Shown in pieces: positions 3,256 to 42,684 of a DNA stretch of 50,295 nt. This DNA is from a virus: IMG/VR virus record IMGVR_UViG_3300045988_134262; one strand, written 5' to 3'. A program made the translations under genes and the position numbers. Under the pieces are notes generated by a model. The model was not told where the DNA came from and ran no database searches. It saw nothing but the letters and a program-made list of their open reading frames with translations. How positions within the stretch are numbered: the first letter of the stretch is position 1; each line of letters starts with the position of its first letter.

Positions 3256-4248
3256 ATGGCGGTAATTAGAACTATCAAAAATGATAATTATACAACAATG
3301 AGCAATTATCATTTAAAAGATAAGGAATTATCCTTAAAAGCAAAAGGTTTATTGAGCATGATGCTATCATTTCCCGATGAGTGGCATTATTCCGTTAAAG
3401 GATTAAAAGGTATATGCAAAGAAAGTGTCAATACCATAAACGGAATATTAAACGAATTAGAGGAAAAGAACTATTTAGTTAGGAGAAGAAAATATTTAAA
3501 TGGGAAAATTAGTGAATGGGAGTATGTAATATTTGAAACAAATAAAAATCATGATACAGAGTTACTACATCTCAAAAATGAAGATATAGAAAATGAAGAT
3601 ATTGAAAATGTAGATATAGAAAATGTAGATATAGAAAATGAAGACGTATATAAATATACTAAAGGATTAAATACTAAAGTATTAAATACTAATAGATTAA
3701 ATACTAAAGGATATATTGTTCAAAACGATTTAGAAAATCATTTTGAACCATCAGTTATTCAACTAACGCTTAATGATAAAACCTTATATGATGTTAGTGA
3801 AAATGATTTTAAAGAATACGAGGAACTATATCCTAATGTTGATATCATGCAAGAACTAAGAAAGATGAAAGGTTGGCTAAATGCGAATCCTACAAAAAGA
3901 AAAACTAAAAGAGGTATTAAAAGATTTATAAACAGTTGGTTATCAAGGGAACAAGATAAGCCAAAACCTAATAATATTTATAATAATGTTAATATTTCAA
4001 ATAATATCAAAGAAAAACCAACTCCAAAATGGGTTGAGAAACAAAAAGAAAAAGAAAAAAAGCAAAAAGAAATAGGATATACAACAAAAGAATTATTGGA
4101 AATGTATGATAAACAGATTGAAAGTGGCTCAACAGATTTAGCAGAACATACATCTAACTTATTTAAAGAATTAAACGGTTGGAGTATTAAAGAATATAGA
4201 AAAAGTGTTGAAGAACTAAATCAAATTATGGAGCAGAATGGATTTTAA
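3256..4248 (+). CDS. Replication initiator / replisome organizer (N-terminal winged-helix domain, DnaD-like C-terminal region)
   Basis: The N-terminus is YTTMSNYHLKDKELSLKAKGLLSMMLSFPDEWHYSVKGL...LEEKNYLVRRR. The C-terminus MKGWLNANPTKRKTKRGIKRFINSWLSRE is typical of phage DnaD-like initiators. An iteron block sits inside the linker. Confidence 0.7.
   Translation: MAVIRTIKNDNYTTMSNYHLKDKELSLKAKGLLSMMLSFPDEWHYSVKGLKGICKESVNTINGILNELEEKNYLVRRRKYLNGKISEWEYVIFETNKNHDTELLHLKNEDIENEDIENVDIENVDIENEDVYKYTKGLNTKVLNTNRLNTKGYIVQNDLENHFEPSVIQLTLNDKTLYDVSENDFKEYEELYPNVDIMQELRKMKGWLNANPTKRKTKRGIKRFINSWLSREQDKPKPNNIYNNVNISNNIKEKPTPKWVEKQKEKEKKQKEIGYTTKELLEMYDKQIESGSTDLAEHTSNLFKELNGWSIKEYRKSVEELNQIMEQNGF
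3574..3648. repeat. Five tandem 15-bp iterons (GAAAATGWAGATATA) inside the initiator gene; putative origin
   Basis: Read directly. Units start at 3574, 3589, 3604, 3619 and 3634. They translate as NEDIENEDIENVDIENVDIENEDV. Confidence 0.6.
3666..3710. repeat. Three tandem 15-bp repeats (ATTAAATACTAANNN) adjoining the first iteron block
   Basis: Read directly. Units start at 3666, 3681 and 3696. Confidence 0.55.
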
Positions 4249-4264
4249 AAAGGAGAATGGATAT

Positions 4265-4582
4265 ATGAAACTTAAAAATCTAGAAGATATGGTTTTAAAA
4301 ATCATGCAGAGATATGAAGCAACAAGAAGTGATGATTTTGTTTTAATTTATACAGTTTATAGAGAAATGGCAGTAGATGCGGAAATTCTTTTTAATATTC
4401 CGTTAACAGATAGTTTTTCCGACATGATGTTGAATCATAAGAAATATGGATTTCCTTCCTTTGAATCAGTAACGAGAACAAGAAGAAAGATTTTTGAAAC
4501 ACACCCCGAACTAAAACCAAAAAAAATCACTAAAGAAAGAAAAAAAGCAGAAGAAGAATATAAGGAGTATTCTAAATCATGA
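4265..4582 (+). CDS. Hypothetical protein
   Basis: AAGGAG RBS before the ATG at 4265. Its end overlaps the radical SAM gene start (ATGA). Confidence 0.5.
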   Translation: MKLKNLEDMVLKIMQRYEATRSDDFVLIYTVYREMAVDAEILFNIPLTDSFSDMMLNHKKYGFPSFESVTRTRRKIFETHPELKPKKITKERKKAEEEYKEYSKS

Positions 4583-5724
4583 AAAACGATATTAAAAAAT
4601 TCAATCCTTTAAATGTCAGCAGTAAATTCGCTATTTGTGGATTGCCAATAAGAATTGATTCTTATAAAACCTGTTCTTTTGGGTGTAAATACTGCTTTGC
4701 AGAAAATAGAAAAATTATGGAGTATGAGAAGAAAATTCAAGTGGCAAATATTAATCAAGTAAAAAATAAACTAAAAAAAGTATTTGATGATAGAAATGTT
4801 GATAAAACAAATTTCCTAGAAACATTGATTGCTGAAGGTATAACTTGGCATTGTGGAGGAATGAGCGACCCATTCCAACCATGCGAAAAAAGGTTGCAAA
4901 TCACAAAGCAAATATTAGATATTACAAATAAATATGGAATCCATATTTTATTCTCAACGAAAAGCAATACAACGTATAACTGCGACATTAGACCAGATTT
5001 ACATAGTTTTCAATTAAGTGTAACAAATACTGAAAACTTAAAAAATATTGAACCTAATGTTCCGAGCATTGAAAGTAGATATAAATTCTTTATGGAATTA
5101 AAAAATAAAGGGTTTAAAGTTGGCATAAGAATACAGCCGTTTATACCTAATATCTCAACATTGAAAATAGTTGAAATGTTTAAAGATGCAGATAACTTCA
5201 CATTAGAAGGAATTAAAATAGTTCCTCAAAACAAAGAATGCAAAGAATTTATTTTAAAAGAAATGAATTTAAAAAAAGAAGATTTTACGCAGATGGGATT
5301 ATTGAATTTAAAACCAACAATCAGATTAGAATTATATAAAACATTTATTGAATATTTTAAAAAAAATAATATCCCATTCTCAATAGCAGATAATGATTTA
5401 CATTTTATAGGAACTAACAAGTGCTGTTGTGGTGATAGATTGGTGCATAAAAGCACATCATTCAACAATACGGCAATGATTAAGAAATATGGAGAAGATT
5501 ATGCAAAAGAACAGTTAGATGAAGAATTATTTGATTGTGGTGTTCGTGATTGTAAATGTAATCAACTATTTACCTCAAACAGGCAAGAAGGCTGTACAAG
5601 CGTTCAAGATTTCTATGATAAAAGATTTTACAGAAAAACAAGCCCATTTTCTCCAAAATTTCAATATAAGGAAGATGATGAAGAAAAAGAGCAAATAGAA
5701 CAGATAAGTATGTTTGATATTTAG
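4579..5724 (+). CDS. Radical SAM enzyme, spore-photoproduct-lyase/COG1533-like ('DNA repair photolyase' family)
   Basis: Canonical CxxxCxxC (CSFGCKYC) near residue 32. Downstream, GGMSDPFQPCE...ITKQILD...HILFSTKS resembles the SplB-like core (tDPYqp.E ... TKs). Confidence 0.7.
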   Translation: MKNDIKKFNPLNVSSKFAICGLPIRIDSYKTCSFGCKYCFAENRKIMEYEKKIQVANINQVKNKLKKVFDDRNVDKTNFLETLIAEGITWHCGGMSDPFQPCEKRLQITKQILDITNKYGIHILFSTKSNTTYNCDIRPDLHSFQLSVTNTENLKNIEPNVPSIESRYKFFMELKNKGFKVGIRIQPFIPNISTLKIVEMFKDADNFTLEGIKIVPQNKECKEFILKEMNLKKEDFTQMGLLNLKPTIRLELYKTFIEYFKKNNIPFSIADNDLHFIGTNKCCCGDRLVHKSTSFNNTAMIKKYGEDYAKEQLDEELFDCGVRDCKCNQLFTSNRQEGCTSVQDFYDKRFYRKTSPFSPKFQYKEDDEEKEQIEQISMFDI

Positions 5725-5825
5725 TGTTCTAAAACAGAACGGAAAAATGAAGCCTTTTAAGACTTCTTTTTCGTCCTCATATGGTATATAATCAAAATGA
5801 AATATAACTGAAAGGAGATTTAAAA

Positions 5826-6299
5826 ATGGAAATTATTGAATTAAATATTGATGATTTAAAAGCATATGAAAACAATCCAAGAAATAATGATGAAGCCGTT
5901 GAATACGTTAAAAAAAGCATCAAAGAATTTGGAATGAAAGTTCCTTTAGTTATTGATAAGAATAACGTTATTGTAACAGGTCATACGAGATTAAAAGCAT
6001 GTAAGGAATTAGGTTATAAAAAGATTCCTTGCATTGTTGCTGATGATTTAAATGAGGAGCAAATAAACGCTTTTAGATTGGTGGATAATAAAACAAATGA
6101 ATTTGCATCATGGGATTTTGATAAATTAGAAGAAGAATTAAGTTTAATATCTGATATTGATATGAATGACTTTGGTTTTGAAAGCGCAGAAGATATTGAT
6201 ATTGATGCATTTTTTAGTGATGCAGAACCTACAGAAAGCAAGGAAGAAAAGAAGAAAACTATTAAATGTCCTCATTGTGGAGAAGAGATAGAAATATGA
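5826..6299 (+). CDS. ParB N-terminal (ParB/Srx nuclease-like) domain protein with C-terminal zinc ribbon
   Basis: The core is LKAYENNPRNNDEAVEYVKKSIKEFGMKVPLVIDKNNVIVTGHTRLKACKELGYKKIPCIV. The C-terminus carries CPHCGEEI. Its stop overlaps the next start (ATGA). Confidence 0.75.
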   Translation: MEIIELNIDDLKAYENNPRNNDEAVEYVKKSIKEFGMKVPLVIDKNNVIVTGHTRLKACKELGYKKIPCIVADDLNEEQINAFRLVDNKTNEFASWDFDKLEEELSLISDIDMNDFGFESAEDIDIDAFFSDAEPTESKEEKKKTIKCPHCGEEIEI

Positions 6300-7186
6300 T
6301 TATCTATCTAAGTGGACAAGGTGGGATATTTAATCAATCTTACGAAAAGTGGAAAAGGACTAAAAAAAATATGGATATGTACTTAGTGATAAGTGGAGAG
6401 ACAGGAAACCCTCAAATATGTAAGGAAAAATTAGATATGGAAATATATTTAGCAGGTTCAGAAGCACAAGCAAAACAAATGAATGAGGATAATAAAGATA
6501 ATTTATTTAAAGGAACAAATGTATTGCAATCATATTATTATTGTAACGAATTTACTGAAAAAGTAGTTATACCATCATGTGATAGTTTTATGTTGGATAG
6601 TGGCGCTTTTACATTTTTCTCAAGTGGGAAAAATGTAGATTGGAATGATTATATAGAAAAGTATGCTGACTTTATAGTAAGAAATGATGTTAAACTATTT
6701 TTTGAATTAGATATTGATGTTTTAATTGGATATGAAAATGTATTGCGTTTAAGAAAAAAATTAGAATCATTAACGCATAGAAAATGCATACCTGTTTGGC
6801 ATAGGTCAAGAGGATTAGACGAGTTCATCAAAATGTGCAAAGAATATGATTATGTTGCATTAGGTGGAATAGCAATAAAAGAGATAAGCAGAAAAGAATA
6901 TAAATATTTCCCAAAATTAATTAAAATAGCACATGATAACGGAGCAAAAATTCATGGACTAGGGTTTACTAGTTTAAACGGAATAACTAAATATCATTTT
7001 GATAGCGTTGATAGCACATCATGGGTTAGTGGAAACAGATTTGGAAAAGTTTATAAATTTAACGGAAAAACAATGGTATGGTATGACAAAAAAGAAGGTC
7101 AGCGTTTAGCAGATAGCAGAAAAGTAGCAGTTCATAATTTTAAGGAGTGGGCTAAATTTGCTGAATATGCTAAAAATAATTTATAA
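6296..7186 (+). CDS. dpdA: DpdA-like DNA (7-deaza)guanine transglycosylase (TGT superfamily)
   Basis: TGT-like motifs FMLDSGAFTFF (cf. DSGGFQ), ALGGIA, HGLGFT and HFDSVDSTSW (cf. archaeal-type FDSA). It sits directly upstream of queD-queE-folE. Start taken at the ATG at 6296 (GGAG RBS, ATGA overlap). Confidence 0.65.
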   Translation: MIIYLSGQGGIFNQSYEKWKRTKKNMDMYLVISGETGNPQICKEKLDMEIYLAGSEAQAKQMNEDNKDNLFKGTNVLQSYYYCNEFTEKVVIPSCDSFMLDSGAFTFFSSGKNVDWNDYIEKYADFIVRNDVKLFFELDIDVLIGYENVLRLRKKLESLTHRKCIPVWHRSRGLDEFIKMCKEYDYVALGGIAIKEISRKEYKYFPKLIKIAHDNGAKIHGLGFTSLNGITKYHFDSVDSTSWVSGNRFGKVYKFNGKTMVWYDKKEGQRLADSRKVAVHNFKEWAKFAEYAKNNL

Positions 7187-7214
7187 AAGCATTTAGATGA
7201 AAAAGGAGAAAAAT

Positions 7215-7550
7215 ATGTATTATGTTAAAAAAAGAATTGAAGTAAGTGCTAGTCATAAACTTAACTTAAGTTATGAAAGTAAATGTGAAAATCTACATGG
7301 ACATAATTGGATAATTGATATTTACATGAGAAGCGAAGAATTAAATAAAGATGGAATGGTAATGGACTTTACTCATATTCAAAAAGAAATCAAAGATAAA
7401 TTAGACCATAAGAATTTAAATGATGTTCTTTCATTCAACACAACAGCAGAAAATATTGCAAAGTGGATTGCGGATACATTAGGAGAAAAATGCTATAAAG
7501 TTGATGTGCAAGAAAGCGAAAATAATATTGCAACTTATGAGGTAGAATAA
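7215..7550 (+). CDS. queD: 6-carboxy-5,6,7,8-tetrahydropterin synthase
   Basis: C-x3-HGH motif (CENLHGHNW), MVMDF and LDHKNLND. Size is about 110 aa. Confidence 0.85.
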   Translation: MYYVKKRIEVSASHKLNLSYESKCENLHGHNWIIDIYMRSEELNKDGMVMDFTHIQKEIKDKLDHKNLNDVLSFNTTAENIAKWIADTLGEKCYKVDVQESENNIATYEVE

Positions 7551-7551
7551 A

Positions 7552-8208
7552 ATGAAAGTTAATGAAATTTTTAAAAGCATTGACGGAGAAGGATTAAGAA
7601 CAGGAGAATTAACAACTTTTATCAGATTAGCAGGTTGTAATTTAAGATGCTCATACTGCGATACATGTTATGCATTAAAAAATTCTAATGGAACAGAAAT
7701 GTCTGTTGATGAAATTGTTAAAAGGGCAAAAAAATATGATTATAGAAACATCACATTGACAGGAGGAGAACCACTTATTAATAAAGATGTTGATGATTTA
7801 ATTTCTAAATTATGTGAAAATGGGTTTTATGTAAATATTGAAACAAATGGAAGTGTACCTATTGATAAGTACATTTTAAATAAAAACATTCTTATTACAA
7901 TGGATTACAAACTTCCTTCTAGTGGTGTTGAAAAAAATATGAATTTAAACAACTTAGAAAAATTAAGAGCAAATGATGTATTGAAATTTGTTATTGGAAA
8001 AGATGATTTTGATAAAGTTAAGCAGATAATTGAAAAATATAGAATCAAATCATATATTTATTTAAGCCCTGTCTTTGGTGAAATAGAACCTTTTGAAATA
8101 GTTGATTTTATGAAAATAATGCATACACAAGGAATTGATACGTCAAAAATGAGGGTGCAAGTTCAGTTGCATAAAATCATATGGAATCCAAACGAAAGAG
8201 GTGTTTAA
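7552..8208 (+). CDS. queE: 7-carboxy-7-deazaguanine synthase (radical SAM)
   Basis: N-terminus [14 protein letters not shown], cluster motif [10 protein letters not shown], and LTGGEPL. Confidence 0.85.
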
Positions 8209-8209
8209 T

Positions 8210-8776
8210 ATGGATAAGAAAAAAATTGAAAATGCAGTTAGAGAAATTCTTATTGCAATTGGAGAAAATCCCGATCGTGAAGGATTAATTGAGACACCAA
8301 AAAGAGTTGCCAAAATGTATGAGGAAGTGTTTGAAGGCATTCAATATTCAAATGAAGAAATTGCTAAAATGTTTGATAAAAAATTCAAGCAAGAAGGAAA
8401 TGATTTAGTTTTAGTAAAAGATATCCCATGCTTTAGTTACTGCGAGCATCATATCGCATTAATGTATAACATGAGTATTAATATTGCATATATTCCAAAT
8501 GGTTATGTATTAGGTCTTTCAAAATTTGCAAGAATTTCCGACATGGTCTGCAAAAGATTACAGTTACAAGAAAGAATTGGAACAGACATTGCAGATATTT
8601 TAGAAATGATATTAGGAACTGATGATATTGCAGTTGTAATAAATGGAGAGCATTCTTGCATGACTGCAAGAGGTATTAAAAAACCTAATACGAAAACAAG
8701 AACAGCAACATTGCGTGGAAGATTCAAAGAAAACGCTGAATTAAGAAATGAACTATATAATTTACTTTCTAAATAA
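8210..8776 (+). CDS. folE: GTP cyclohydrolase I
   Basis: [33 protein letters not shown] and HSCMTARG are classic FolE blocks. Confidence 0.9.
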
Positions 8777-8805
8777 AAAGATACTCAAAAGAGTATCTTT
8801 TTTTA
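8777..8805 (+). terminator. Rho-independent terminator after folE
   Basis: AAAGATACTC-aaaa-GAGTATCTTT followed by a T-run. Confidence 0.8.
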
Positions 8806-8827
8806 TAGAAAAAAGTTGAAATAATTG

Positions 8828-8856
8828 TTGACTATATATGTAATACATAGTATAAT
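8828..8856 (+). promoter_or_regulatory. Conserved early promoter copy 1 (TTGACT-17-TATAAT) with dyad ATGTAATACAT in the spacer
   Basis: Read directly. Bases 8843-8894 are identical over 52 nt to 44766-44817. Confidence 0.7.
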
Positions 8857-8885
8857 AAATATGTAAAGAAGAGAGGTAAACGAAT

Positions 8886-9254
8886 ATGAAAACAAACTTA
8901 GAAGAAATTATGAACGTAAGAAAAGGACTTGAAGGATATGTTGGTGAAGAATATGATTACAAACTATTCAAAAATTGTGAATGTATGCTTCACAACTTAA
9001 GAGAAAGAATGAGCCACGTTCTAGATGTTGCAATGCATACAGAAGAAAAAGAAGAACTAGAAAATGAATATTTGGAACTAGAAAAAGAATACAATGAACT
9101 GTATGAAGAATTAAAACCTTATATGTTAGCAGTATATGATGGATATAAAGAATACTCAGAACGTTGCTATTATAGATATAACAACGTAATTGATTATAGA
9201 CATTGCGATGATTATTTTATGAATGAAATGGCAATAGAAATATTTAAGAACTAA
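8886..9254 (+). CDS. Hypothetical protein, family B paralog (with 43496..43813 and 45438..45950)
   Basis: Shared blocks K(L/M)F.NC...L.NL and KEYNEL...L.P(Y/I)M...Y.GYK.Y...C. Confidence 0.6.
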   Translation: MKTNLEEIMNVRKGLEGYVGEEYDYKLFKNCECMLHNLRERMSHVLDVAMHTEEKEELENEYLELEKEYNELYEELKPYMLAVYDGYKEYSERCYYRYNNVIDYRHCDDYFMNEMAIEIFKN

Positions 9255-9258
9255 AAAT

Positions 9259-9286
9259 AAGTGAAGCGATAACACTTAAAACACTA
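9259..9286 (+). repeat. 28-bp conserved element copy 1 (AAGTGAAGCGATAACACTTAAAACACTA)
   Basis: One of four near-identical copies, each just downstream of a stop codon. Confidence 0.7.
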
Positions 9287-9310
9287 ATTTAAAGAAAGAA
9301 GGAAAGAAAT

Positions 9311-9520
9311 ATGGAATATAACAAAGAAAATTATATAGGAAGAAAAATCTTGCTTTTTCCAAATGATACATACAGTAAAAAGGTAGTTATCAAGAATGTA
9401 GATGATTTAGGATTTACTATATTGATAACAGAGGCAGAAAAAGAGTCTGGTTACGCAGTAGGAAGAACATATTTTATCAATCATGCTTCACATATTAAAT
9501 TTTTATTTTTGGATTCATGA
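9311..9520 (+). CDS. Hypothetical protein
   Basis: ORF with a purine-rich RBS. No recognisable motif. Confidence 0.5.
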   Translation: MEYNKENYIGRKILLFPNDTYSKKVVIKNVDDLGFTILITEAEKESGYAVGRTYFINHASHIKFLFLDS

Positions 9521-9547
9521 TTTTAAAAGAATTGAGGTAAAAGAAAA

Positions 9548-9802
9548 ATGGAAAAGACAATTAATTTTGAAGGCGATGTTTTAACACTTGTAATAGTAGA
9601 AGAGCCAAACAGTAATTGGGATATATACTATTGCGACAGAAACAAACAACTTTACTATATTGCAAAAAAGAAAGGTTGTGGAAGTGGTTGGTTCGGTGAT
9701 CTATACCATTTAAAAAGACTTAAAATAAGATTTGGTTTCAGTTATGAAAGCATTACTGAAAAGGGTGTTGAATTGGGTATTGATAAAATTTTAGGAGAAT
9801 AA
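9548..9802 (+). CDS. Hypothetical protein
   Basis: ORF with a GAGGT RBS. Confidence 0.5.
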   Translation: MEKTINFEGDVLTLVIVEEPNSNWDIYYCDRNKQLYYIAKKKGCGSGWFGDLYHLKRLKIRFGFSYESITEKGVELGIDKILGE

Positions 9803-9806
9803 AAAG

Positions 9807-10034
9807 ATGAAAATTATTAATGATATAGTTGCTATGGATATGATCCATATTATAGATGATGTAAATATCCTATATGATGTTGATGTAAGAAAAATGCTTG
9901 TATTGGAGACAGTACAAGCATATAAAAGAAACTTAGAACGTGCTGAAAATTTGAAGGAATATAACGATATTCTTTCAGATTTTAGAAACATGCTAGTAGA
10001 TGTTATTGAAGCACAAAAAAAATGTAATGAATAA
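9807..10034 (+). CDS. Hypothetical acidic protein
   Basis: ORF with a GGAG RBS. Confidence 0.5.
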   Translation: MKIINDIVAMDMIHIIDDVNILYDVDVRKMLVLETVQAYKRNLERAENLKEYNDILSDFRNMLVDVIEAQKKCNE

Positions 10035-10059
10035 AAAAAGAAAAAATTAAAACTTTCGC

Positions 10060-10088
10060 TTGTATATATGTATCACATATGCTATAAT
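10060..10088 (+). promoter_or_regulatory. Conserved early promoter copy 2 (TTGTAT-17-TATAAT) with ATGTATCACAT in the spacer
   Basis: Read directly. Followed by the AGAGAGAGGTAAAAGAATATG leader. Confidence 0.65.
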
Positions 10089-10118
10089 ATATATATAGAA
10101 AGAGAGAGGTAAAAGAAT

Positions 10119-10427
10119 ATGACAAATTTAGAAATTGTTGAAAAAGAAGTGGTTGAAAGAGGATTCTTGACAGAAGAAGAATGTGGAAAGATAATTGGAC
10201 AGTATGGAGAATTACCATACAAAACATATCAAGAATGGAAATATAGTGGTTATCAAGTAAAGAAAGGATCTAAAGCAGTTATAAAAACTAAACTTTGGAA
10301 GAAAGTAAAAAGCAAAAAGAAAGAGGAAGAAAGTGAAGATAAAGAAAACAATAAAAAAGTAAGTAACTTTATTATGGTTACTGCATCATTATTTGATTTA
10401 TCACAAGTTGAAAAAATTGAAGCATAG
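10119..10427 (+). CDS. Hypothetical protein (weak ArdC-N/DUF1738-like flavour)
   Basis: YKTYQEWKYSGYQVKKGSKAV loosely recalls the T..QW...G..VkKGEK motif. The C-terminal half is K/E-rich. The family assignment is unsure. Confidence 0.45.
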   Translation: MTNLEIVEKEVVERGFLTEEECGKIIGQYGELPYKTYQEWKYSGYQVKKGSKAVIKTKLWKKVKSKKKEEESEDKENNKKVSNFIMVTASLFDLSQVEKIEA

Positions 10428-10463
10428 GCATAATGCTTATGCTTCAAATAGTAAACAAGGAGA

Positions 10464-10682
10464 ATGAAAAAAATGGAATTAAACGAAGTATTTACAGTTA
10501 AAAAAGGCAAAAGAACATTAAGATGGAAAATTGTTGAGCACCCATATTTTTATTGCTTAACACTTGTTAGAGACCACCCTTATTTAACAAGTGGTGAATG
10601 TTCAAAGGAAGATATGAAACATATGGGTGGGAGTTTTGAAACAATAGAAAAAGCGTATGAATGGGCACAATTAATGTCATGA
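10464..10682 (+). CDS. Hypothetical protein
   Basis: ORF after an AAGGAG. The start is ambiguous between 10464 and 10473. Confidence 0.5.
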   Translation: MKKMELNEVFTVKKGKRTLRWKIVEHPYFYCLTLVRDHPYLTSGECSKEDMKHMGGSFETIEKAYEWAQLMS

Positions 10683-10693
10683 GGGTGATAGCA

Positions 10694-10864
10694 ATGAACA
10701 CTCATAAAGCACTATACGCATATTATGAAAAAGATGAATTAAAGATAGTTGGAACTGCTAGAGAGTTAGCAAACTATTTAAATACGTCTATCTACAATGT
10801 AAGAAGAAGAGCAAGAAAAGAAAAGGATATTATAAAAGTTGGATATATAGGAGATGATGAATAA
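10694..10864 (+). CDS. Small basic protein, paralog of 1037..1243
   Basis: GAGGGTG RBS. See 1037..1243 for the shared pattern. Confidence 0.5.
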   Translation: MNTHKALYAYYEKDELKIVGTARELANYLNTSIYNVRRRARKEKDIIKVGYIGDDE

Positions 10865-11121: not shown

Positions 11122-11310
11122 GTGGAAGTTGATGAAAATAGATTAAACAAACTTTTGAATGCTTTTGGTCATAACTGCGACTATTTGTATCAAGAAGTTT
11201 ATAAAAAATACTGCTGTCATGGAATCATTAATAATGAACCTAATGAATGTAAAAATTGTAAATTTAAAAATAGCAAGTCAATAAAAGAATGGATTAGAAA
11301 GGAAAATTAA
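11122..11310 (+). CDS. Small Cys-rich protein
   Basis: GTG start after an AAGGAG. Contains ECKNCKF and CC motifs. Confidence 0.45.
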   Translation: MEVDENRLNKLLNAFGHNCDYLYQEVYKKYCCHGIINNEPNECKNCKFKNSKSIKEWIRKEN

Positions 11311-11440: not shown

Positions 11441-12316
11441 TTGGACAATGAATTTATTTTGATTGATAGGGTTGATTCTATCAAGAAAGTTATAAACAAA
11501 TATGGAATTGAAAATTTTGTTATTTCATTTAGTGGAGGAAAAGATTCCACTGTATTATCAAAGTTAATTGATATTGCAATACCTAATAATGATATTCCAA
11601 GGGTATTCATAAATACAGGTATTGAATATAAAGCAATTGTTGATTTTGTGCATGAGAATATGAAAAAGGATAAACGATTTATTGAGATTAAACCATCAAT
11701 ACCTTTAAGCATGATATTTAGAAAATATGGTTATCCTTTTAAATCTAAGGAACATAGTCAATTAGTTCATTTATTTCAGCAAAACGGACATAGCAAAACA
11801 ACTCTTAGATATTATAACCCTCCAGAAAATCGCAAGCGTTTTGGTTGCCCTAAAGTATTAAAATATCAATTTGAAGAAGGAACACAACTTAAAATAAGTG
11901 ATAAGTGTTGCACTAAATTAAAAAAAGAACCATTTACAAAATGGCAAGAAGAAAATAGAAAACCTTATAAAATGACAGGAGAAAGACTTTCGGAGGGTGG
12001 TTTAAGAGCATCTCATAAAGGTTGCTTAGTTATTGATAAGAATAGCAAACTAAAGAAATTTAAACCATTGAATCCTGTCACTAGTGAATGGCTTGAATGG
12101 TTTATAAATGAGTATAAAGTTCAATTATGCAAATTATATGATGAACCTTATAACTTTAAAAGAACAGGTTGTTTAGGGTATCCATTTAATATTAATTTGC
12201 AAGATACATTAGATACTTTAGAAAAGACTTTGCCACTTGAGAAAAAGAAAGCAGAAGCAATTTGGAAAGAAGTATATCAAGAGTATAGGAAATTAAATTA
12301 CAGATTAAAAAGGTAA
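11441..12316 (+). CDS. PP-loop ATP pyrophosphatase, PAPS-reductase-like family
   Basis: SFSGGKDST PP-loop, INTGIEY, CCTKLKKEP, TGERLSEGGLRA and KRTGCLGYP follow the PAPS_reduct block order. The only possible start before the PP-loop is TTG at 11441, and it has no clear SD. Confidence 0.7.
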   Translation: MDNEFILIDRVDSIKKVINKYGIENFVISFSGGKDSTVLSKLIDIAIPNNDIPRVFINTGIEYKAIVDFVHENMKKDKRFIEIKPSIPLSMIFRKYGYPFKSKEHSQLVHLFQQNGHSKTTLRYYNPPENRKRFGCPKVLKYQFEEGTQLKISDKCCTKLKKEPFTKWQEENRKPYKMTGERLSEGGLRASHKGCLVIDKNSKLKKFKPLNPVTSEWLEWFINEYKVQLCKLYDEPYNFKRTGCLGYPFNINLQDTLDTLEKTLPLEKKKAEAIWKEVYQEYRKLNYRLKR

Positions 12317-12799: not shown

Positions 12800-13276
12800 A
12801 TGATTAATTGCGAAAGATACATAGATGATATTTTAAAAACTAATAATTGTGATTTTGGATTTAATAAACGTGATAGAAAAATTATAAAATGTGATGCAAA
12901 ATATTGTGATGAATGTTTATTCAATCCGAAAAATTGTGCATATAAATCAACATGTAATGTTTTAAGATTAAAATGGTTGGCTTCTGAAAATAAAGAACCT
13001 ATTAGGTTGAATAGACTTGAATATGAGGTTTTAAAATTCATAGAATTTGGATATATTGCTAGGGATAAAGAAGGAAATTTATTTTCATTTTGGTATAAAC
13101 CAAGAAAATGTAATGATATTTGGGATTGTGATGTTCCTAAGAATCAAAATTATTCACATGATTTAACTTTATTCAATGAATTATTTAAATTTATTAGATG
13201 GGAAGATGCAGAACCAACTTCAATAGAAGAATTATTAAAAAATTGCGAGGTAACTGAAAATGCTGAAAACAGATGA
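12800..13276 (+). CDS. Family A paralog 1 (Cys-rich N-terminus plus conserved W-E/K-D...EP(T/K)SI C-terminal domain)
   Basis: LNRLEYEVLKFI...YIARDKEGNL...LFNELFKFIRWEDAEPTSIEELLKNCEV aligns with four other ORFs. Confidence 0.65.
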   Translation: MINCERYIDDILKTNNCDFGFNKRDRKIIKCDAKYCDECLFNPKNCAYKSTCNVLRLKWLASENKEPIRLNRLEYEVLKFIEFGYIARDKEGNLFSFWYKPRKCNDIWDCDVPKNQNYSHDLTLFNELFKFIRWEDAEPTSIEELLKNCEVTENAENR

Positions 13277-13457
13277 TATTGCTCAATTTGTCGCAATTAG
13301 TGGACTAATGAATTATTGTAAATCTCATGATGATTGCAAAAATTGCAATATGTATAATCTTTGCAATGTACTGACAGGAGAAAAGAAATTAACGTGGGTT
13401 ATTGATAAAATTATATTTGAACATTCAGATAATGAGGAGGAAAAAGAATATGAATAA
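13260..13457 (+). CDS. Small Cys-rich protein
   Basis: YCKSHDDCKNCNMYNLC. The start lies in a conserved junction TTGCGAGGTAACTGAAAATG. Confidence 0.5.
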   Translation: MLKTDDIAQFVAISGLMNYCKSHDDCKNCNMYNLCNVLTGEKKLTWVIDKIIFEHSDNEEEKEYE

Positions 13458-13917
13458 TGGAGAAAAATACAAAGATAAAATTATTGAAGAATATCAAAAT
13501 TTACTAAAAGAAAAAGTTATTGATGGTGATGGCAATAGAATGAATAGAGCAATTAAGGAAATTGCATATAAATATTGTGGAATGAGATTACTTGGCGCAT
13601 CTAGTACATTTGAATGGTTATTTGATGATTATAAAGAACAACCTATCAAATTAACTAGATTAGAATATTTATTATTAAAGTTATTTTATGAAAAAGATTT
13701 TAGGTATTTAACAAGAAGTGCTGGAGGGTTTTTGTATATGAATAAAGGAAATAATCCTCCTCAAAAAAAAGATGGAATGTGGTTTAATTGCGAATCTTAT
13801 ATAACTTATGATGTAATTAATGATTTATTTCAATTTGTGCAGTGGAAAGATGAACAACCTAAATCAATCAAAAAAATACTAAATAACTGCGAAGTATTTG
13901 ATAATGAAGATAACTAA
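13450..13917 (+). CDS. Family A paralog 2 (lacks the Cys-rich N-terminus)
   Basis: LTRLEYLLLKLF...YLTRSAGGFL...INDLFQFVQWKDEQPKSIKKILNNCEV. GGAGG RBS. Confidence 0.65.
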   Translation: MNNGEKYKDKIIEEYQNLLKEKVIDGDGNRMNRAIKEIAYKYCGMRLLGASSTFEWLFDDYKEQPIKLTRLEYLLLKLFYEKDFRYLTRSAGGFLYMNKGNNPPQKKDGMWFNCESYITYDVINDLFQFVQWKDEQPKSIKKILNNCEVFDNEDN

Positions 13918-13961
13918 ATTAATTATTCTTATGAAAAATGGCGATTATTGGAGGGTTTAAA

Positions 13962-14417
13962 ATGATTAATGCAGAAAAATATAAAAATGAATTAAAATCA
14001 TTAAATGATGCAGATAAATTATGGTGTAGTGCTTTTAATAAATATGATATGACTTTTGACAGTTGTGTAAATGTAAAATGTGAAAATTGTGCATTTAGCG
14101 GTGGCAAAGGTTGCAGGGTAGAACGTTATAATTGGCTATTATCTGAGTATATCGAACATATTGAGGTTAGCGAGTTTGAATATAAGATTCTTAAATATCT
14201 AGCAGATAAAACAAGACATATGTATATCGCAAGAGATAAAAGCGGAAGCCTATATCTCTATGATTCTGAGCCTTGCAAGAGCAACACTAAAAATTTGTGG
14301 ATTGGTAAAGGTACACCACAACTAACACCATTTAATAAACTGTTTAAATTTATCACGTGGGAAGATGATAAACCAACATCAATCAAAGATGTTTTAGATA
14401 ATTGCATTATTAAATGA
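13962..14417 (+). CDS. Family A paralog 3
   Basis: MINAEKYKNEL, a C-x13-C-x4-C-x2-C-x7-C block, YIARDKSGSL and FNKLFKFITWEDDKPTSIKDVLDNC. Confidence 0.65.
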   Translation: MINAEKYKNELKSLNDADKLWCSAFNKYDMTFDSCVNVKCENCAFSGGKGCRVERYNWLLSEYIEHIEVSEFEYKILKYLADKTRHMYIARDKSGSLYLYDSEPCKSNTKNLWIGKGTPQLTPFNKLFKFITWEDDKPTSIKDVLDNCIIK

Positions 14418-14774: not shown

Positions 14775-15248
14775 ATGATTAACGCTGAAAAATTCAAAGA
14801 TGAATTAAGAATAATTATTGATTCAAATAAATTAAATGATTGCGCATTTAGAAAAAATAATAAAACATTTTGTGAGTGTTCTGATACTTTTTGCGAAAAT
14901 TGCATATTTGATAACAGAAAAGGCTGTCAGTACGGACGCATAAAGTGGATGCTTTCAGAGTATAAAGAAGGGATCGTTTTATCAAAACTTGAATATGCAC
15001 TTTTAAAATATATTTTTAACAGAACAAAATATAGATACATTGTTAGAAGTAAACTTGGAGAAGTTTTCGTTTATGAGAACGAACCAATAAAAAACGGTGA
15101 TGATTGGAGCGTTCTTTTAAATGGTGGAGGATTTACAACTATAGTGTTTTTAAGTGAATTATTCAAATTTATAAAATGGTCTGATTTAACAGCAATATCA
15201 ATAAAAGATGTTCTTGCTGATTGTAATGTTATTGATGATAATTATTAA
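14775..15248 (+). CDS. Family A paralog 4
   Basis: MINAEKFKDEL, a Cys block ending CENC, YIVRSKLGEV and LSELFKFIKWSDLTAISIKDVLADC. Confidence 0.65.
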   Translation: MINAEKFKDELRIIIDSNKLNDCAFRKNNKTFCECSDTFCENCIFDNRKGCQYGRIKWMLSEYKEGIVLSKLEYALLKYIFNRTKYRYIVRSKLGEVFVYENEPIKNGDDWSVLLNGGGFTTIVFLSELFKFIKWSDLTAISIKDVLADCNVIDDNY

Positions 15249-16206: not shown

Positions 16207-16375
16207 TGATAAAAAATTGCACTTATTACTTGAAATGATAAATTTTGTAGCAAACTGCAATTATGTGTATTTTAATTGGTATGGAGAAAGATGTAGGTAT
16301 CAGTTAGATTGCAATGAAAAATGTCCATTCTACAATGTTGAAAATATGATGAAATGGGTAAAAGAAGGAGATTAA
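16196..16375 (+). CDS. Small Cys-rich protein
   Basis: GAGGAA RBS. Contains CRYQLDCNEKCPFYN. Confidence 0.5.
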   Translation: MIVNDKKLHLLLEMINFVANCNYVYFNWYGERCRYQLDCNEKCPFYNVENMMKWVKEGD

Positions 16376-16377
16376 GT

Positions 16378-16923
16378 ATGACTAAATTAAATGTAACTAT
16401 TGAGATGGTTAACGGTGATGAATATTTAATTAAAAAAGACTGTTTTAATCCTAATGAGTACATTAAACAAATGAAAGAAAAACTTAAAAATAATGAAGCA
16501 ATTGAAATTCATGAGGATTATGAATTTTGTTGCAATGATAAAGTGGGCTACAGAACAATAAAACCAACAATAGAAGAACCTTTATTAATCAACGCTTCAA
16601 ACATTGTAACTATTGAATTTGAGAAAGAGCAAATTAAAGAAAAGATTAAGTTAACAAAATTTGAACGTGATATATTAAAACATTGCTTATATAAAAATCG
16701 TAATTATATTGCAAGAGATTATAACGATAACCTAAAAGTATATGAGTATCCACCAAAGAAAGATGGAAAAACTTGGGAAAATTTAATTGATTCCGATAAT
16801 TTAAATTTATGTGAAGATATGTTTTTATGCGTATCATGGAATGATGAAGAACCAACATCAATCGCAGAGTTATTAAAAAATTGTGATAAAGATTGCGAGG
16901 TTACTGAAAATGACAGTAAATGA
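16378..16923 (+). CDS. Family A paralog 5 (12536-like N-terminal domain fused to the family A C-terminal domain)
   Basis: The N-terminus is VTIEMVNGDEYLI...INASNIVTIE. The C-terminus is LTKFERDILKHC...YIARDYNDNL...WNDEEPTSIAELLKNC..CEV. Confidence 0.65.
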   Translation: MTKLNVTIEMVNGDEYLIKKDCFNPNEYIKQMKEKLKNNEAIEIHEDYEFCCNDKVGYRTIKPTIEEPLLINASNIVTIEFEKEQIKEKIKLTKFERDILKHCLYKNRNYIARDYNDNLKVYEYPPKKDGKTWENLIDSDNLNLCEDMFLCVSWNDEEPTSIAELLKNCDKDCEVTENDSK

Positions 16924-24373: not shown

Positions 24374-24640
24374 ATGGACTTTACACAGTTAACGCAGTAT
24401 TTTGTTTTAGTCGTAATGGTCGCTTGTCTAGTCGTAGGATATATTATCAAGACATCTTTTGATAAAGTACCAAATAAGTACATTCCAACAATTCTTGCGG
24501 TTGTTGGGGCCGTTCTTAACGCAGTAGTTAGTGGCATGTCTGTCAATTCGATTGTTTATGGAGCACTTATGGGGCTTGCTTCTACAGGACTACATCAGGC
24601 CTTTACTAGATTTGTTGAAGGTGAGAAAGAAGGTGTTTAA
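24374..24640 (+). CDS. Holin, copy A
   Basis: Two TM helices. GLASTGLHQAFT is shared with 42414..42674. Confidence 0.7.
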   Translation: MDFTQLTQYFVLVVMVACLVVGYIIKTSFDKVPNKYIPTILAVVGAVLNAVVSGMSVNSIVYGALMGLASTGLHQAFTRFVEGEKEGV

Positions 24641-24856
24641 ATGACTGAGGCACAGGCAGTATACACAGTTATTATTTGTGTTGGAGCGCTAATAGGAGTG
24701 ATGACTCCTGTTCTAAAATTAAATAATAGCATTACTAAACTAACAACTGCATTAGAATATCTAGCCACAGACAATAGAAGACAGGATGCGAGATTAGATG
24801 CACATGCGAAGGAATTGGATGACCACGAAAAAAGAATCAGTCATCTAGAAAAGTAG
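24641..24856 (+). CDS. XhlA-like membrane/coiled-coil lysis protein, copy A
   Basis: An N-terminal TM helix is followed by the coiled coil RLDAHAKELDDHEKRISHLE. Paralog of 42685..42945. Confidence 0.6.
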   Translation: MTEAQAVYTVIICVGALIGVMTPVLKLNNSITKLTTALEYLATDNRRQDARLDAHAKELDDHEKRISHLEK

Positions 24857-25166: not shown

Positions 25167-26054
25167 ATGAAGGTAAACGTACACGGTGGACATTCTCTTA
25201 AATGTAGAGGAGCAAGCGGATTATTAGACGAAGTAAACGAAGATAGAGCGGTAAAGAATAGAGTAATTGAATTGTTACGTGCAAATGGACATACTGTTTA
25301 TGATTGTACAGATGATAACGGAACAACACAAAATGCGAACCTAAAAGCAATCGTTAATAAATGTAATTCACATTCTGTTGATTTGGATGTATCTATTCAT
25401 CTAAACGCAGGAGGTGGAACAGGAACAGAGGTATATATCTATAACAGTAAATCAAAAGCAAAAGATGAAGCAACTAGAATTGCGGAAAATGTTTCTAGTG
25501 CATTAGGTATCAGAAATAGAGGAGTTAAAACAAGTACTAGTTTATACGTATTGAGAAAGACAAAAAGTCCAAGTCTTTTAATTGAATGCTGTTTTGTTGA
25601 TAACGAAACAGATAAAGTAAGATGGAACGCTGACAAGTGTGCAAAAGCAATTGTTGAAGGTATTCTAAATGATGCAGTAAATAATGTTACTCATACAGAA
25701 TCACCAAATCCAAAGCCAACAACAAACCATAACGCAAATGGCTATGATGAATGGGTAGCACGTTTACAGAGAGAACTAAATGATCAGTTTGATAAAGGTT
25801 TGGACGTTGACGGATTAAAAGGTCATAAGACTTTAAATGCATGCGTAACAGTCAAGCGTGGAGCAATGGGAAATATCACAAGATTAATTCAAGAAAGATT
25901 AAATAGCGTTGGATTCAGTCTTTCAACTGATGGAATCTTTGGTGGAAACACTGAAAATGCCGTTAAAGTATTCCAAAAAAATAGAGGATTGAAATCAGAT
26001 GGAATTGTTGGAAGAAATACATGGAATTGGCTTCTTAAAGGAACTAAGATGTAG
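25167..26054 (+). CDS. Endolysin: N-acetylmuramoyl-L-alanine amidase (Amidase_3) with two PG_binding_1 repeats
   Basis: The amidase part has HGGHS...E...D..SIHLNAGGGTG.EV...LLIECCFVDN. The C-terminal repeats are LQRELN...GLDVDG and VFQKNRGLKSDGIVGRNTW. Confidence 0.85.
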   Translation: MKVNVHGGHSLKCRGASGLLDEVNEDRAVKNRVIELLRANGHTVYDCTDDNGTTQNANLKAIVNKCNSHSVDLDVSIHLNAGGGTGTEVYIYNSKSKAKDEATRIAENVSSALGIRNRGVKTSTSLYVLRKTKSPSLLIECCFVDNETDKVRWNADKCAKAIVEGILNDAVNNVTHTESPNPKPTTNHNANGYDEWVARLQRELNDQFDKGLDVDGLKGHKTLNACVTVKRGAMGNITRLIQERLNSVGFSLSTDGIFGGNTENAVKVFQKNRGLKSDGIVGRNTWNWLLKGTKM

Positions 26055-30612: not shown

Positions 30613-30634
30613 TAAGGTGTGAATGAGGTATTAT

Positions 30635-30784
30635 ATGGTTATTAATGGGTGGTATTGTTGCCCTAAATGTAAGCAGAAATTATTTAAAGTAAGTAATGAT
30701 TTCATTGCAAAGGGCATTCAATTAAAATGCAAGAGATGCAAGACTATTATTAATATAAATGAGCCTATGAGCCTATCACATTAA
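30635..30784 (+). CDS. Cysteine-rich KTR-like zinc-ribbon protein (49 aa)
   Basis: WYCCPKCKQKL...LKCKRCKTIININ gives two CxxC pairs. Confidence 0.5.
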   Translation: MVINGWYCCPKCKQKLFKVSNDFIAKGIQLKCKRCKTIININEPMSLSH

Positions 30785-32811: not shown

Positions 32812-32835
32812 TCAAATAAAAGGTAGGTGATAACA

Positions 32836-33105
32836 ATGAATGATGAACTATTAATAAAAGTTAAAAAAGGCTTAGGAATAACAGGCGATTATCAAGATGA
32901 TACATTGCTAATCTATATTAATGAAGTGGAAGACTTCATGCGTGGAGCAGGTGTTTCTGATGCAATTATTAATAGTAATAGTTCTGTTGGAGTTATCACA
33001 CGTGGAGTTAGCGACTTGTGGGATTATGGAAGTGGTTCTACAGGTCTATCTCCTTATTTTAAGGAACGTGTTGTGCAATTAAGAGCAGGTGAAAAAGATG
33101 TATAG
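32836..33105 (+). CDS. Head-tail connector (gp6-like)
   Basis: LIKVKKGLGITGDYQDDTLLIYINEVEDFM is a typical gp6-like N-terminus. Confidence 0.65.
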   Translation: MNDELLIKVKKGLGITGDYQDDTLLIYINEVEDFMRGAGVSDAIINSNSSVGVITRGVSDLWDYGSGSTGLSPYFKERVVQLRAGEKDV

Positions 33106-33448
33106 ACCTATAGAAGCAAGAGACATGAAAGTACCTTTTAAATTATTTGTAGTTAGTGAATATGAGAAGGTTAAAGGAGTAATGCAACCTAAATCATATG
33201 CAGAAAAAGACTTGATATATTGTAGTTTTAAAACTTATGGAGGTACTGAAAAAGAAGTTAATGGAAGATATGTTATATATGATACTGCAAATGTTATTAC
33301 ATGGTTTAGACCAGACATTCAGAGTGATTGCAGATTAAAAAGAATGAGTGATGGAGCATTATTTGAAATTCTAAATGAACCCGAAAATATTGAAATGAAA
33401 AATCAATATCTTAAATTTAAGGTTCAGAGAATAAAAGGAAAAATGTAA
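33098..33448 (+). CDS. Head closure protein
   Basis: Call based on size and position. Confidence 0.5.
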   Translation: MYRPIEARDMKVPFKLFVVSEYEKVKGVMQPKSYAEKDLIYCSFKTYGGTEKEVNGRYVIYDTANVITWFRPDIQSDCRLKRMSDGALFEILNEPENIEMKNQYLKFKVQRIKGKM

Positions 33449-33449
33449 T

Positions 33450-33893
33450 ATGCCTACTCATAAGTTCAGCATAGACTTTGAAGAAGTCAACAACATGTTA
33501 GATGATTTAAAAAAGGTTGATGGAAATGTTAAAGAAGCAACGGAAGAAGCCTTAACTAAATCACATGAATATATAACACCATTGATAGAAAAGAAACTTG
33601 ATAAAGAAAATTTACCTGCGCATGGTAAATACGCAACAAAAGATAGAGAACATTCAATAAAGCAGATTATCCGAGAACCTAATATACAATGGACAGGGAA
33701 AACTTGCACAATTGATGTTGGATTTAACTTAAATAATTCACCTGTTCCAATTTTTCTCATTAGAGGAGGAAAAGGGGAAGCAGTAAAAGGACTTAAAACA
33801 CTTCTAGAAGGAAGTAAGACAAAAGAAAAAGTTGCAGAGATTCAGCAAGATGTTATCCTTGAAGCAATATCAAAGGCAATGCGAGGTGATTGA
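33450..33893 (+). CDS. HK97 gp10-like tail/neck component
   Basis: Call based on position. Confidence 0.45.
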   Translation: MPTHKFSIDFEEVNNMLDDLKKVDGNVKEATEEALTKSHEYITPLIEKKLDKENLPAHGKYATKDREHSIKQIIREPNIQWTGKTCTIDVGFNLNNSPVPIFLIRGGKGEAVKGLKTLLEGSKTKEKVAEIQQDVILEAISKAMRGD

Positions 33894-34241
33894 ATGGACG
33901 ATTTATTAATAGAAACACTTGAAAAAGTTGGATATGAGGTTATCAAGCAAGGAACAATAGAAGCAGATGAAGAATGTCCAAGAGCATTTTTCACTTATTG
34001 GAATTGGGATAACCCACGAAATGAACACTATGATAATAAATATCATTCAGTTACTTACTATTATCAGATACAATTTTTTAGTGATGATATAAAAATTGTT
34101 GATGTAGCAATGAATAAGGCAGTTGAACTACTAGAAAATAATGGTTTTAATATTGATGAAGAACCTACAGATACGTATAGCGATATTCCAAACTATACGG
34201 GAAAATACTTAGAAGCAAATATAGAAAAAAGGAGGAGTTAG
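33894..34241 (+). CDS. Tail completion/terminator protein
   Basis: Call based on position, immediately before the major tail protein. Confidence 0.4.
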   Translation: MDDLLIETLEKVGYEVIKQGTIEADEECPRAFFTYWNWDNPRNEHYDNKYHSVTYYYQIQFFSDDIKIVDVAMNKAVELLENNGFNIDEEPTDTYSDIPNYTGKYLEANIEKRRS

Positions 34242-34967: not shown

Positions 34968-35315
34968 ATGGAATTAGTATTAAATATTTATGGAAAAGAA
35001 AGAAATAAGGAAACAGGTAAAAGAGAAATTATTAAGACATATGAGACAGATGAATATGATTTAATGTTTGGAACAGTTGAGGATATTTTAACAATTTTTG
35101 ATATTGAAAACATGAATGATACAAGCGAAATCTTAAAAATGATAACTAAAGTTATGAATCAGTTAAAGCCTTTATTAAAAGATGTATTCTATGGATTGAC
35201 TGATGAAGAATTAAAGTGCATCAAAGTTAAGGAATTAATTCCTGTTGTTGTTGGCATCTTACAGATTGCAAAAGAGCAGTTCAGTGACGGCTCAAAAAAC
35301 GTGATGAGGGGATAG
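34968..35315 (+). CDS. Tail assembly chaperone (gpG-like)
   Basis: Position before the tape measure gene. Contains a slippery heptamer near its 3' end. Confidence 0.7.
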   Translation: MELVLNIYGKERNKETGKREIIKTYETDEYDLMFGTVEDILTIFDIENMNDTSEILKMITKVMNQLKPLLKDVFYGLTDEELKCIKVKELIPVVVGILQIAKEQFSDGSKNVMRG

Positions 35316-35548
35316 ATGATAATATCCCCGTTTCACAAACATTATATAAATTAACTAATAGCATATGTGAAATGTATCCTTCTTTAAATCCATTCATCAT
35401 AAGAAAGCAGAGAGCAACCGAAGTATTCAGACTTATTCGATTGATCAAGGATAGCAATAAATATAGCAATGAAACTATTGAAAGTGATGGAACAAGACAC
35501 ATGAGAAGAAATGTAACAGGAAAACGAGGAACAGGAGGGTGGATTTAA
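34968..35548 (+). CDS. Tail assembly chaperone frameshift fusion (gpGT-like)
   Basis: A -1 shift at 35294-35300 extends the product with RDEGIDDNIPVSQTLYKL...RRNVTGKRGTGGWI. Confidence 0.6.
35294..35300 (+). promoter_or_regulatory. -1 programmed frameshift slippery heptamer A_AAA_AAC
   Basis: In the gpG frame the codons read tcA AAA AAC. The -1 frame is open from 35288 to the TAA at 35546-35548. Confidence 0.7.
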
Positions 35549-42674: not shown

Positions 42675-42684
42675 AGGTATTCTT

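Follow-up and report, generated by a model that had tools for sequence, protein, structure and literature searches.

A phage lineage with a 7-deazaguanine DNA-modification module lacking QueC

Which base reaches the DNA of a phage that encodes a DNA guanine transglycosylase and the synthesis of 7-carboxy-7-deazaguanine (CDG), and no QueC to carry CDG further? The question is raised by the IMG/VR virus record IMGVR_UViG_3300045988_134262, a stretch of 50,295 nucleotides (nt) which we will henceforth refer to as the window and which comes from a gut phage. A first-pass annotation, made from its letters and open reading frames (ORFs), had placed a six-gene 7-deazaguanine DNA-modification island at 4579-8776, had noted that QueC was missing, and had concluded that the phage either depends on the QueC of its host or installs CDG or a CDG-derived base. 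We consider this the right pair of alternatives. Phage DpdA systems with eight known deazaguanine bases have been described (PMC6884629, PMC10516641). By comparing the window with related viral contigs and loci (labelled here with L-numbers, e.g., L045), we found that its module differs from the cassettes of sister phages by a deletion that covers dpdC and queC, and we tentatively propose that its transglycosylase inserts CDG itself.

Gene content of the module and absence of QueC

All six ORFs of the proposed island are present on the + strand, and the family matches of DpdA, QueD, QueE and FolE support its assignment as a DpdA-type 7-deazaguanine DNA-modification island. The claimed FolE/QueD/QueE route ending at CDG is likewise sound, and all three proteins scored above their curated NCBIfam cut-offs. 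Specifically, the GTP cyclohydrolase I FolE (8201-8776, + strand; gene callers place its start at 8210) scored 247 against a cut-off of 162 for NF006826 and matched Pfam PF01227 (E 6.6e-67); the 6-carboxytetrahydropterin synthase QueD (7215-7550, + strand; alternative start 7197) scored 90.9 against 89.25 for TIGR03367 and matched Pfam PTPS (E 1.6e-31); and QueE, a radical SAM CDG synthase of Clostridial type (7552-8208, + strand), scored 270 bits over its full length against 260.1 for TIGR03963. The CxxxHGH motif of QueD is intact and reads CENLHGH; the protein is therefore not the DpdL decarboxylase variant, whose signature is LxxxHRHxF in place of CxxxHGH (PMC10516641).

The DpdA-family DNA guanine transglycosylase (6296-7186, + strand; 296 amino acids) matched the phage protein family phrog_887 (E 2.3e-56), annotated as ‘queuine tRNA-ribosyltransferase’, which is also the annotation of the 242 phage records retrieved with it by tblastn; the family comprises 5478 homologues at E<=1e-10. 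It had no match to the Pfam model of tRNA-guanine transglycosylase (TGT) and scored 14.9 bits against the bacterial DpdA equivalog NF041059, below the cut-off of 200. The protein carries the catalytic-type motifs LDSGAF (D101) and FDSVDS (D236) and a specificity loop GGIAIKE (190-196). In hhalign D101 fell on Asp89 of Escherichia coli TGT, within the TGT Asp89/Asp102 motif, in a local alignment of the Asp motif only, the global alignment having failed. PDB sequence searches with DpdA and with its family profile retrieved no TGT or DpdA. The AlphaFold model is a TIM barrel with a predicted local distance difference test score (pLDDT) of 77.5, and the best TM-scores among the PDB hits listed were those of TGT structures (0.47-0.50). 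The N-terminus (6296-6460, residues 1-56) contains three ‘M-x-[IL]-Y-L-x-G’ repeats, each beginning with Met, and residues 22-67 have a predicted pLDDT <50; gene calls for DpdA in relatives begin at any of the three repeat Mets, making alternative starts possible.

Directly upstream, a ParB_N-domain protein of 157 amino acids (5826-6299, + strand) matched PF02195 with 39.5 bits (cut-off 26.3) and phrog_620 with E 2.6e-56. Its NTP-binding GxxRxxA motif (G52-HTR-LKA58) is intact and is accompanied by a C-terminal CxxC. The start of dpdA overlaps its stop (ATGA). The description of the island as six tightly packed genes goes too far, however: one of the six, encoding a radical SAM enzyme (4579-5724, + strand), lies 101 bp from ParB and outside the module. 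This protein has a CxxxCxxC motif and a match to phrog_13321; its best NCBIfam match, the PA0069/SPL-like family NF033668, stayed at 63 bits where the cut-off is 360, by which its fold would be related to the SPL/PA0069 family, short of equivalog-level membership.

The assembly corresponds to a circular genome of 50,240 bp, the first 55 bases of the window recurring exactly at its end, and because of this closure the absence of QueC applies to the whole genome. Four kinds of search bore that absence out. Pfam gave no match to QueC (PF06508) among the ORFs submitted, i.e., 99 ORFs of >=40 amino acids minus ten from the structural region (those in 30623-30784, 32827-34241 and 34968-35502, plus a 1095-amino-acid ORF at 35572-38859), which were covered by the six-frame searches. 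A six-frame search of the genome for SGGxDS found its sole occurrence in a PAPS-reductase-like gene discussed below, and tblastn and phmmer searches with the QueC proteins of relatives found nothing in the genome. The genome also has no QueF and no second T-fold protein that could be DpdL, its single PTPS-family protein being QueD; DUF6884, helicase and PLD genes are missing from the window.

Deletion of dpdC and queC within the lineage

Contigs whose DpdA is 82-90% identical to that of the window belong to the same phage lineage, and they carry a longer cassette. In L035, L036 and L043-L047 its order is ParB-DpdA-DUF6884-QueC-QueD-QueE-FolE, and in L037 it is ParB-DpdA-QueC-deaminase-QueD-QueE-FolE. 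DUF6884 is the domain of DpdC (bioRxiv 10.1101/2025.02.24.639861), and the DUF6884 protein of the sister phages has the CxxxK and LSAxxG motifs (motif source PMC11701544). Using blastn, we found that window positions 4000-7188 and 7204-8891 align with L045 positions 3703-6893 and 8009-9695 at 90-92% identity, so that, compared with L045, exactly 1,115 bp are missing from the window, namely those with dpdC and queC; the corresponding site in the window is the dpdA-queD junction at 7187-7214. In L037 a dpdC deletion scar, in which the start and the end of the gene are fused, remains at 8897-8967, and this scar makes the full cassette the ancestral state. The deaminase of L037, of the TadA/CDA family, is inserted between queC and queD (9681-10157).

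At least five samples contain the QueC-less arrangement, which is no assembly artefact. A DpdA protein identical to that of the window occurs on at least 14 contigs, and at the four such loci examined, from four sequencing runs, the gene order is kept as far as the contigs reach. A 97% identical DpdA variant (a cluster of 74 sequences) from another sample has the same gene order. Between the window and this variant, both QueC-less, synonymous divergence (dS) was 0.26-0.35 and the ratio of non-synonymous to synonymous divergence (dN/dS) was 0.03-0.10 for dpdA, queD, queE and folE, indicating that the truncated pathway has been maintained by selection since the loss. Judged from this purifying selection, the QueC-less module would appear to work. 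Outside the QueC-less lineage of the window we saw no parallel: QueC is kept in all the other QueD/QueE/FolE cassettes seen (at least 15 loci: L002-L006, L035, L037, L043-L047 and L146-L148), and when viral contigs were scanned with QueE for additional cassettes lacking QueC, those recovered were QueC-plus only.

Divergence between the QueC-less and QueC-plus forms is unevenly spread over the module. Amino-acid identity is lowest for DpdA (87.8%), followed by QueD (92.7%), and reaches 95-99% for the radical SAM, ParB, QueE and FolE proteins. At the nucleotide level, dpdA and the initial 300 bp of queD show 85-89% identity, compared with 91-97% for most of the flanks (ParB, queE and folE).

The base that the transglycosylase may insert

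In the mechanism that we propose, FolE, QueD and QueE would turn GTP into CDG, and DpdA, together with the adjacent ParB-fold NTPase acting as a short analogue of DpdB, would swap guanine for a deazaguanine in double-stranded phage DNA after replication. The ancestral ParB-DpdA-DpdC-QueC-QueD-QueE-FolE cassette should yield preQ0 (7-cyano-7-deazaguanine) and then dADG, the deoxynucleoside of 7-amido-7-deazaguanine, and the module of the window would descend from it through loss of the 1.1 kb dpdC-queC segment. The DpdA of the QueC-less lineage may then insert the phage’s own CDG, giving the CDG deoxynucleoside (dCDG) as the main modification, with a pocket for the 7-substituent presumably altered to suit by V193A, in the Gly-rich specificity loop, and K170R, beside a conserved WH motif. 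We hold this reading tentatively and accept that it may well be wrong; insofar as we lean slightly towards it over preQ0 or preQ1 finished by the host, we do so because of the divergence of DpdA and the substitutions in its specificity loop.

These substitutions were found by comparing the two QueC-less DpdAs (those of the window and P0001) with 119 other aligned relatives. At five positions, counted among the columns conserved in >=70% of the 119, the QueC-less proteins share a state that is rare (<=5%) in the others, and two of the five are K170R (K in 97% of relatives) and V193A (V in 91%). Residue 193 lies in a GG-x-V loop following the sixth strand of DpdA, which by motif and position is probably the Gly-rich specificity loop; there, a Val restricts how large the 7-substituent can be in bacterial DpdA (Val209), archaeal TGT (Val198) and Zymomonas mobilis TGT (Val233) (PMC10164549). 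The aligned DpdAs that are QueC-linked or experimentally of the type producing the preQ0 deoxynucleoside (dPreQ0) have Val in this loop (Seuratvirus GGMVGR, BcepGomr GGMVPI, and GGIV[SAT]KE in the sisters). The loss of dpdC, which encodes an enzyme acting on preQ0-DNA, along with queC also counts for insertion of CDG. Precedent comes from Sulfolobus virus STSV-2, whose DNA naturally contains dCDG, and from the DpdA2 of Vibrio phage VH7D in E. coli delta-queC, where dCDG was found with preQ0 missing (PMC10516641); CDG can thus reach DNA via DpdA when preQ0 is not made. The amounts were very small (149 and 52-95 dCDG per 10^6 nt, respectively; PMC10516641). STSV-2 has no CDG pathway, whereas the phage of the window encodes both CDG synthesis and a DpdA with changes in its putative pocket.

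Several points weigh against this reading. The CDG insertion known for a phage DpdA was inefficient (PMC10516641), and Escherichia phage CAjan delta-queC retained host-derived dPreQ0, at 1/12 of the amount in wild type (PMC7544227). An Ala in place of this Val has no diagnostic value, as DpdAs with GGIAKNP or GGIASKE loops adjoin queC (L141, L142 and L145), and for this reason we rejected the Val-to-Ala change as a marker of QueC loss. Because the loss and the substitutions make up a single evolutionary event, no correlation between them can be claimed, and the equivalence of residue 193 with Val209 comes from motif alignment and predicted secondary structure rather than from superposition of structures. 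Synonymous divergence is raised in the dpdA-queD tract too, so import by recombination fits this tract as well as adaptation does. Finally, a TerL scan of 185,579 species genomes for the host found nothing, leaving the host unassigned.

The first alternative is that the phage overproduces CDG and that the host’s QueC (possibly with QueF) converts it into preQ0 or preQ1 for insertion by DpdA, the loss of queC and dpdC being tolerated streamlining and dPreQ0 or dPreQ1 the nucleoside present in the DNA. We regard this as a serious possibility, if a less probable one than direct insertion. Its model is the CAjan delta-queC phage, which kept host-derived dPreQ0 at 3.5 compared with 44 per 10^3 nt, yet this supply amounted to only ~8% of wild-type modification (PMC7544227). 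Most members of the DpdA clade have no biosynthetic genes, or only a YhhQ-type transporter or QueC, which makes dependence on precursors from the host or the environment the norm in the clade; set against this, the retention of QueC in the other cassettes described above, with only the window’s lineage lacking it, means that QueC normally matters. The Clostridial type of the phage QueE (TIGR03963) is a hint of the pathway's presence in the clade of the host, and the Val-to-Ala pocket would also have room for preQ1 with its bulkier aminomethyl group (PMC10164549). However, dpdC would have kept its substrate if preQ0 were still inserted, yet dpdC was lost, and the genome scans gave no host whose queC status could be read: in addition to the TerL scan, a scan with a DpdA profile recovered only ~55% identical prophage copies, in genomes and metagenome-assembled genomes of Oscillospiraceae and Clostridia.

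Direct insertion of CDG also has to be weighed against a tailoring route, for which the first-pass annotation had put forward the radical SAM enzyme, the ParB-like protein and a PP-loop enzyme 3 kb downstream. In this scheme the PP-loop ATPase encoded by the PAPS-reductase-like gene (11441-12316; SGGxDS motif), perhaps with the radical SAM enzyme (4579-5724), would replace the chemistry of QueC, e.g., by adenylating the CDG carboxylate, with ADG or a different base derived from CDG as the product, formed on DNA or as the free base. QueC, too, belongs to the PP-loop ATPases and activates this carboxylate, and the QueC-less Campylobacter phages reach dADG by an uncharacterised route (PMC10516641). 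In this lineage, both QueC-less genomes that are covered at this position (the window and L038) have the PP-loop gene, and the QueC-plus L035, L037, L045 and L047 do not; the two that have it are sisters, however, and the co-variation therefore counts as one event. Distribution among relatives speaks against the proposal. At least 80 viral loci carry a relative of the PP-loop gene (47-95% identity), and DpdA, QueC, QueD, QueE and FolE were found within 10 kb of none of them (0/80, as far as contigs extend); loci of copies that are 81-82% identical reach >7 kb upstream, past the place where the island would be, and are island-less. On these grounds the gene was rejected, as the main reading, as a QueC substitute. 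It travels instead with a family of ~160-amino-acid proteins, five paralogues of which (~155-190 amino acids) follow it in the window at 12800-13276, 13402-13917, 13938-14417, 14775-15248 and 16354-16923; homologues also trail the PP-loop gene in L056-L058 and L112, suggesting a separate conserved module.

The radical SAM gene, which is widespread among gut phages, fares no better. Its 25 relatives in viral contigs (51-91% identity; genomes of 40-146 kb, L010-L034) have no DpdA, QueD, QueE or FolE nearby (0/25 loci), the closest IMG/VR sisters have the gene at the same place with the island missing, and QueC-plus sisters have it too; we therefore rejected it as a member of the island. It is thus improbable that the PP-loop and radical SAM enzymes form a tailoring route, and we think it correspondingly doubtful that the lineage uses the PP-loop ATPase, with a re-tuned DpdA pocket, to make QueC-independent dADG or a CDG-derived base beyond the eight phage deazaguanines listed to date. 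Least probable of all is that the module is a decaying remnant without useful DNA modification after the loss of queC, or that FolE, QueD and QueE are merely auxiliary metabolic genes: deletions in the cassette do occur (the dpdC scar of L037) and the closest IMG/VR sister phages lack the whole island, but all five module genes are intact, dN/dS stays at 0.03-0.10 over a dS of ~0.3 between two QueC-less genomes, and the QueC-less form recurs in independent samples.

Three observations concern the surroundings of these two genes. The radical SAM gene lies within ~1 kb of a PAPS-reductase-like gene in L017 and in L033/L074. A 62-amino-acid neighbour upstream of the PP-loop gene (11122-11310) follows the same pattern of presence as that gene, except for a weak homologue (35% identity) in L037. 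The paralogues downstream have a Cys-rich N-terminal half and a conserved C-terminal ‘W.D..PTSI..L.NC’.

The ParB-like partner, known systems and genomic setting

The ParB-like protein proved to be a constant partner of DpdA rather than a tailoring candidate. Considering the loci with a DpdA >=36% identical to that of the window and with upstream sequence present, we found a ParB-like ORF directly upstream of, and usually overlapping, DpdA in 31 out of 31. This adjacency is seen in cassettes with no further genes, with a YhhQ-type transporter, with only QueC and with the complete pathway, and a pairing that holds whatever the biosynthetic genes suggests that the protein is an accessory of the transglycosylase. 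A ParB-like gene is also annotated beside dpdA in Arthrobacter phage Sonali and Cellulophaga phage phiSM. Bacterial DpdA requires ATP hydrolysis by DpdB, a ParB-fold ATPase (PMC10164549). The phage ParB-like protein, with its 157 amino acids, lacks the C-terminal domain of DpdB and had no match to DpdB/DndB models; we propose that it may be a functional analogue of DpdB, an NTPase accessory, without being a member of its family. ‘ParB’ is not mentioned in the phage deazaguanine papers PMC6884629, PMC10516641 and PMC10484667. By analogy with the dependence of bacterial DpdA on DpdB, the strict pairing points to a need for an NTPase partner in many phage DpdAs, and such a need could account for the failure of some phage DpdAs in heterologous tests.

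How new is the module? The novelty attributed to its QueC-less gene set was overstated, as FolE, QueD, QueE and DpdA without QueC have already been reported in Mycobacterium phage Bipper (PMC6884629; known by gene content only) and in Campylobacter phage CP220 (dADG, DpdA3) and Cellulophaga phage phiST (PMC10516641), the last with DpdA3, DpdL and 2′-deoxy-7-deazaguanosine (dDG). Unlike phiST, the window has no DpdL, its sole T-fold protein carrying the CxxxHGH of QueD, and in tblastn its DpdA groups with DpdA1/DpdA2-like enzymes (9g/Seuratvirus, BcepGomr and phiSM) and not with the DpdA3 of phiST and CP220. The pattern of an ordinary DpdA without QueC is that of Bipper. The dPreQ0/dADG systems of CAjan and Mycobacterium phage Rosebush (PMC6884629) resemble the window in having a DpdA-family transglycosylase beside FolE, QueD and QueE, and in both cases modification is presumed to occur by post-replicative base exchange. 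By contrast, they have QueC, their DpdAs are only 25-30% identical to that of the window, and the papers on them do not discuss ParB, whereas the DpdA of the window’s lineage always has its ParB-like partner.

The DpdA-DpdB-DpdC system of Salmonella Montevideo (PMC10164549) pairs its transglycosylase with a ParB-fold NTPase, as the window may do with its ParB-like protein, and shares DpdC with the sister phages, whose DUF6884 protein is DpdC-type; the window’s own dpdC is lost. The phage proteins differ from it in that the ParB-like protein has no DpdB C-terminal helical domain and DpdA, with its score of 14.9 bits (cut-off 200), no C-terminal Cys/His zinc cluster; moreover, the window contains no dpdD-K restriction genes.

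A specialist will find nothing surprising in the gene content itself; what the window adds is a series of dpdC/queC variants, a specificity loop that has changed and a strict pairing with ParB, and its lineage, unlike the sets of Bipper, CP220 and phiST, offers QueC-plus sisters for direct comparison, which makes an open question testable. The two QueC-less phages measured so far gave unexpected bases, namely dADG for CP220 and dDG for phiST. The lineage amounts to a natural near-isogenic series with dpdC and queC, with queC only, or with neither, in which DpdA alleles differ at the specificity loop, and through it the evolution of a CDG-using DpdA could be tested directly.

Gene sets around DpdA in more distant relatives were also recorded. 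The isolated Fusobacterium phage phiFN37 (L001) encodes ParB-DpdA-DpdC-like-YhhQ transporter at 8402-10711 without biosynthetic genes, a content that predicts dADG from salvaged preQ0; a separate pair of PAPS-reductase and ParB genes lies 4 kb upstream of this set. A protein of ~105 amino acids (‘FCPLG..YY.A ... HFP’) directly follows DpdA in L054 (1369-1683), L055 (2233-2556), L141 (2998-3303), L142 (8782-9084) and L144 (820-1143). All five neighbouring DpdAs have the Ala loop, none of the Val-loop loci has the protein, and it is absent from the window. It had no match in Pfam, NCBIfam or PHROG; by eye it looks like a small T-fold protein of the QueF kind.

The genome as a whole (~28% guanine plus cytosine) is that of a siphovirus-type phage encoding terminase, portal, prohead protease, capsid, tail and lysis genes, with no integrase detected among the window ORFs scanned. 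ERF, SSB, NinB-like and MazG-like genes lie upstream of the island region. No match was returned when the island was compared by megablast with 50,697 phage records, and TerL and the endolysin share at most 50% identity with their counterparts in phages of Butyrivibrio, Anaerostipes and Dorea. Several smaller features were noted in passing. A NUMOD4/HNH homing-endonuclease-like gene (1777-2304) is present in the window and L039-L041 and missing from the otherwise syntenic L038, L037 and L043, a patchiness that fits a mobile insertion. Three paralogues with a C-terminal ‘...Y.GYK.. C..C’ are encoded at 8886-9254, directly downstream of folE, at 43496-43813 (- strand) and at 45438-45950. Lastly, a two-gene holin cassette, in which Phage_holin_5_2 is joined by a small coiled-coil/transmembrane protein, occurs in two paralogous copies, one at 24374-24856, preceding the endolysin (25167-26054), and the other at 42414-42945, downstream of the tail genes.

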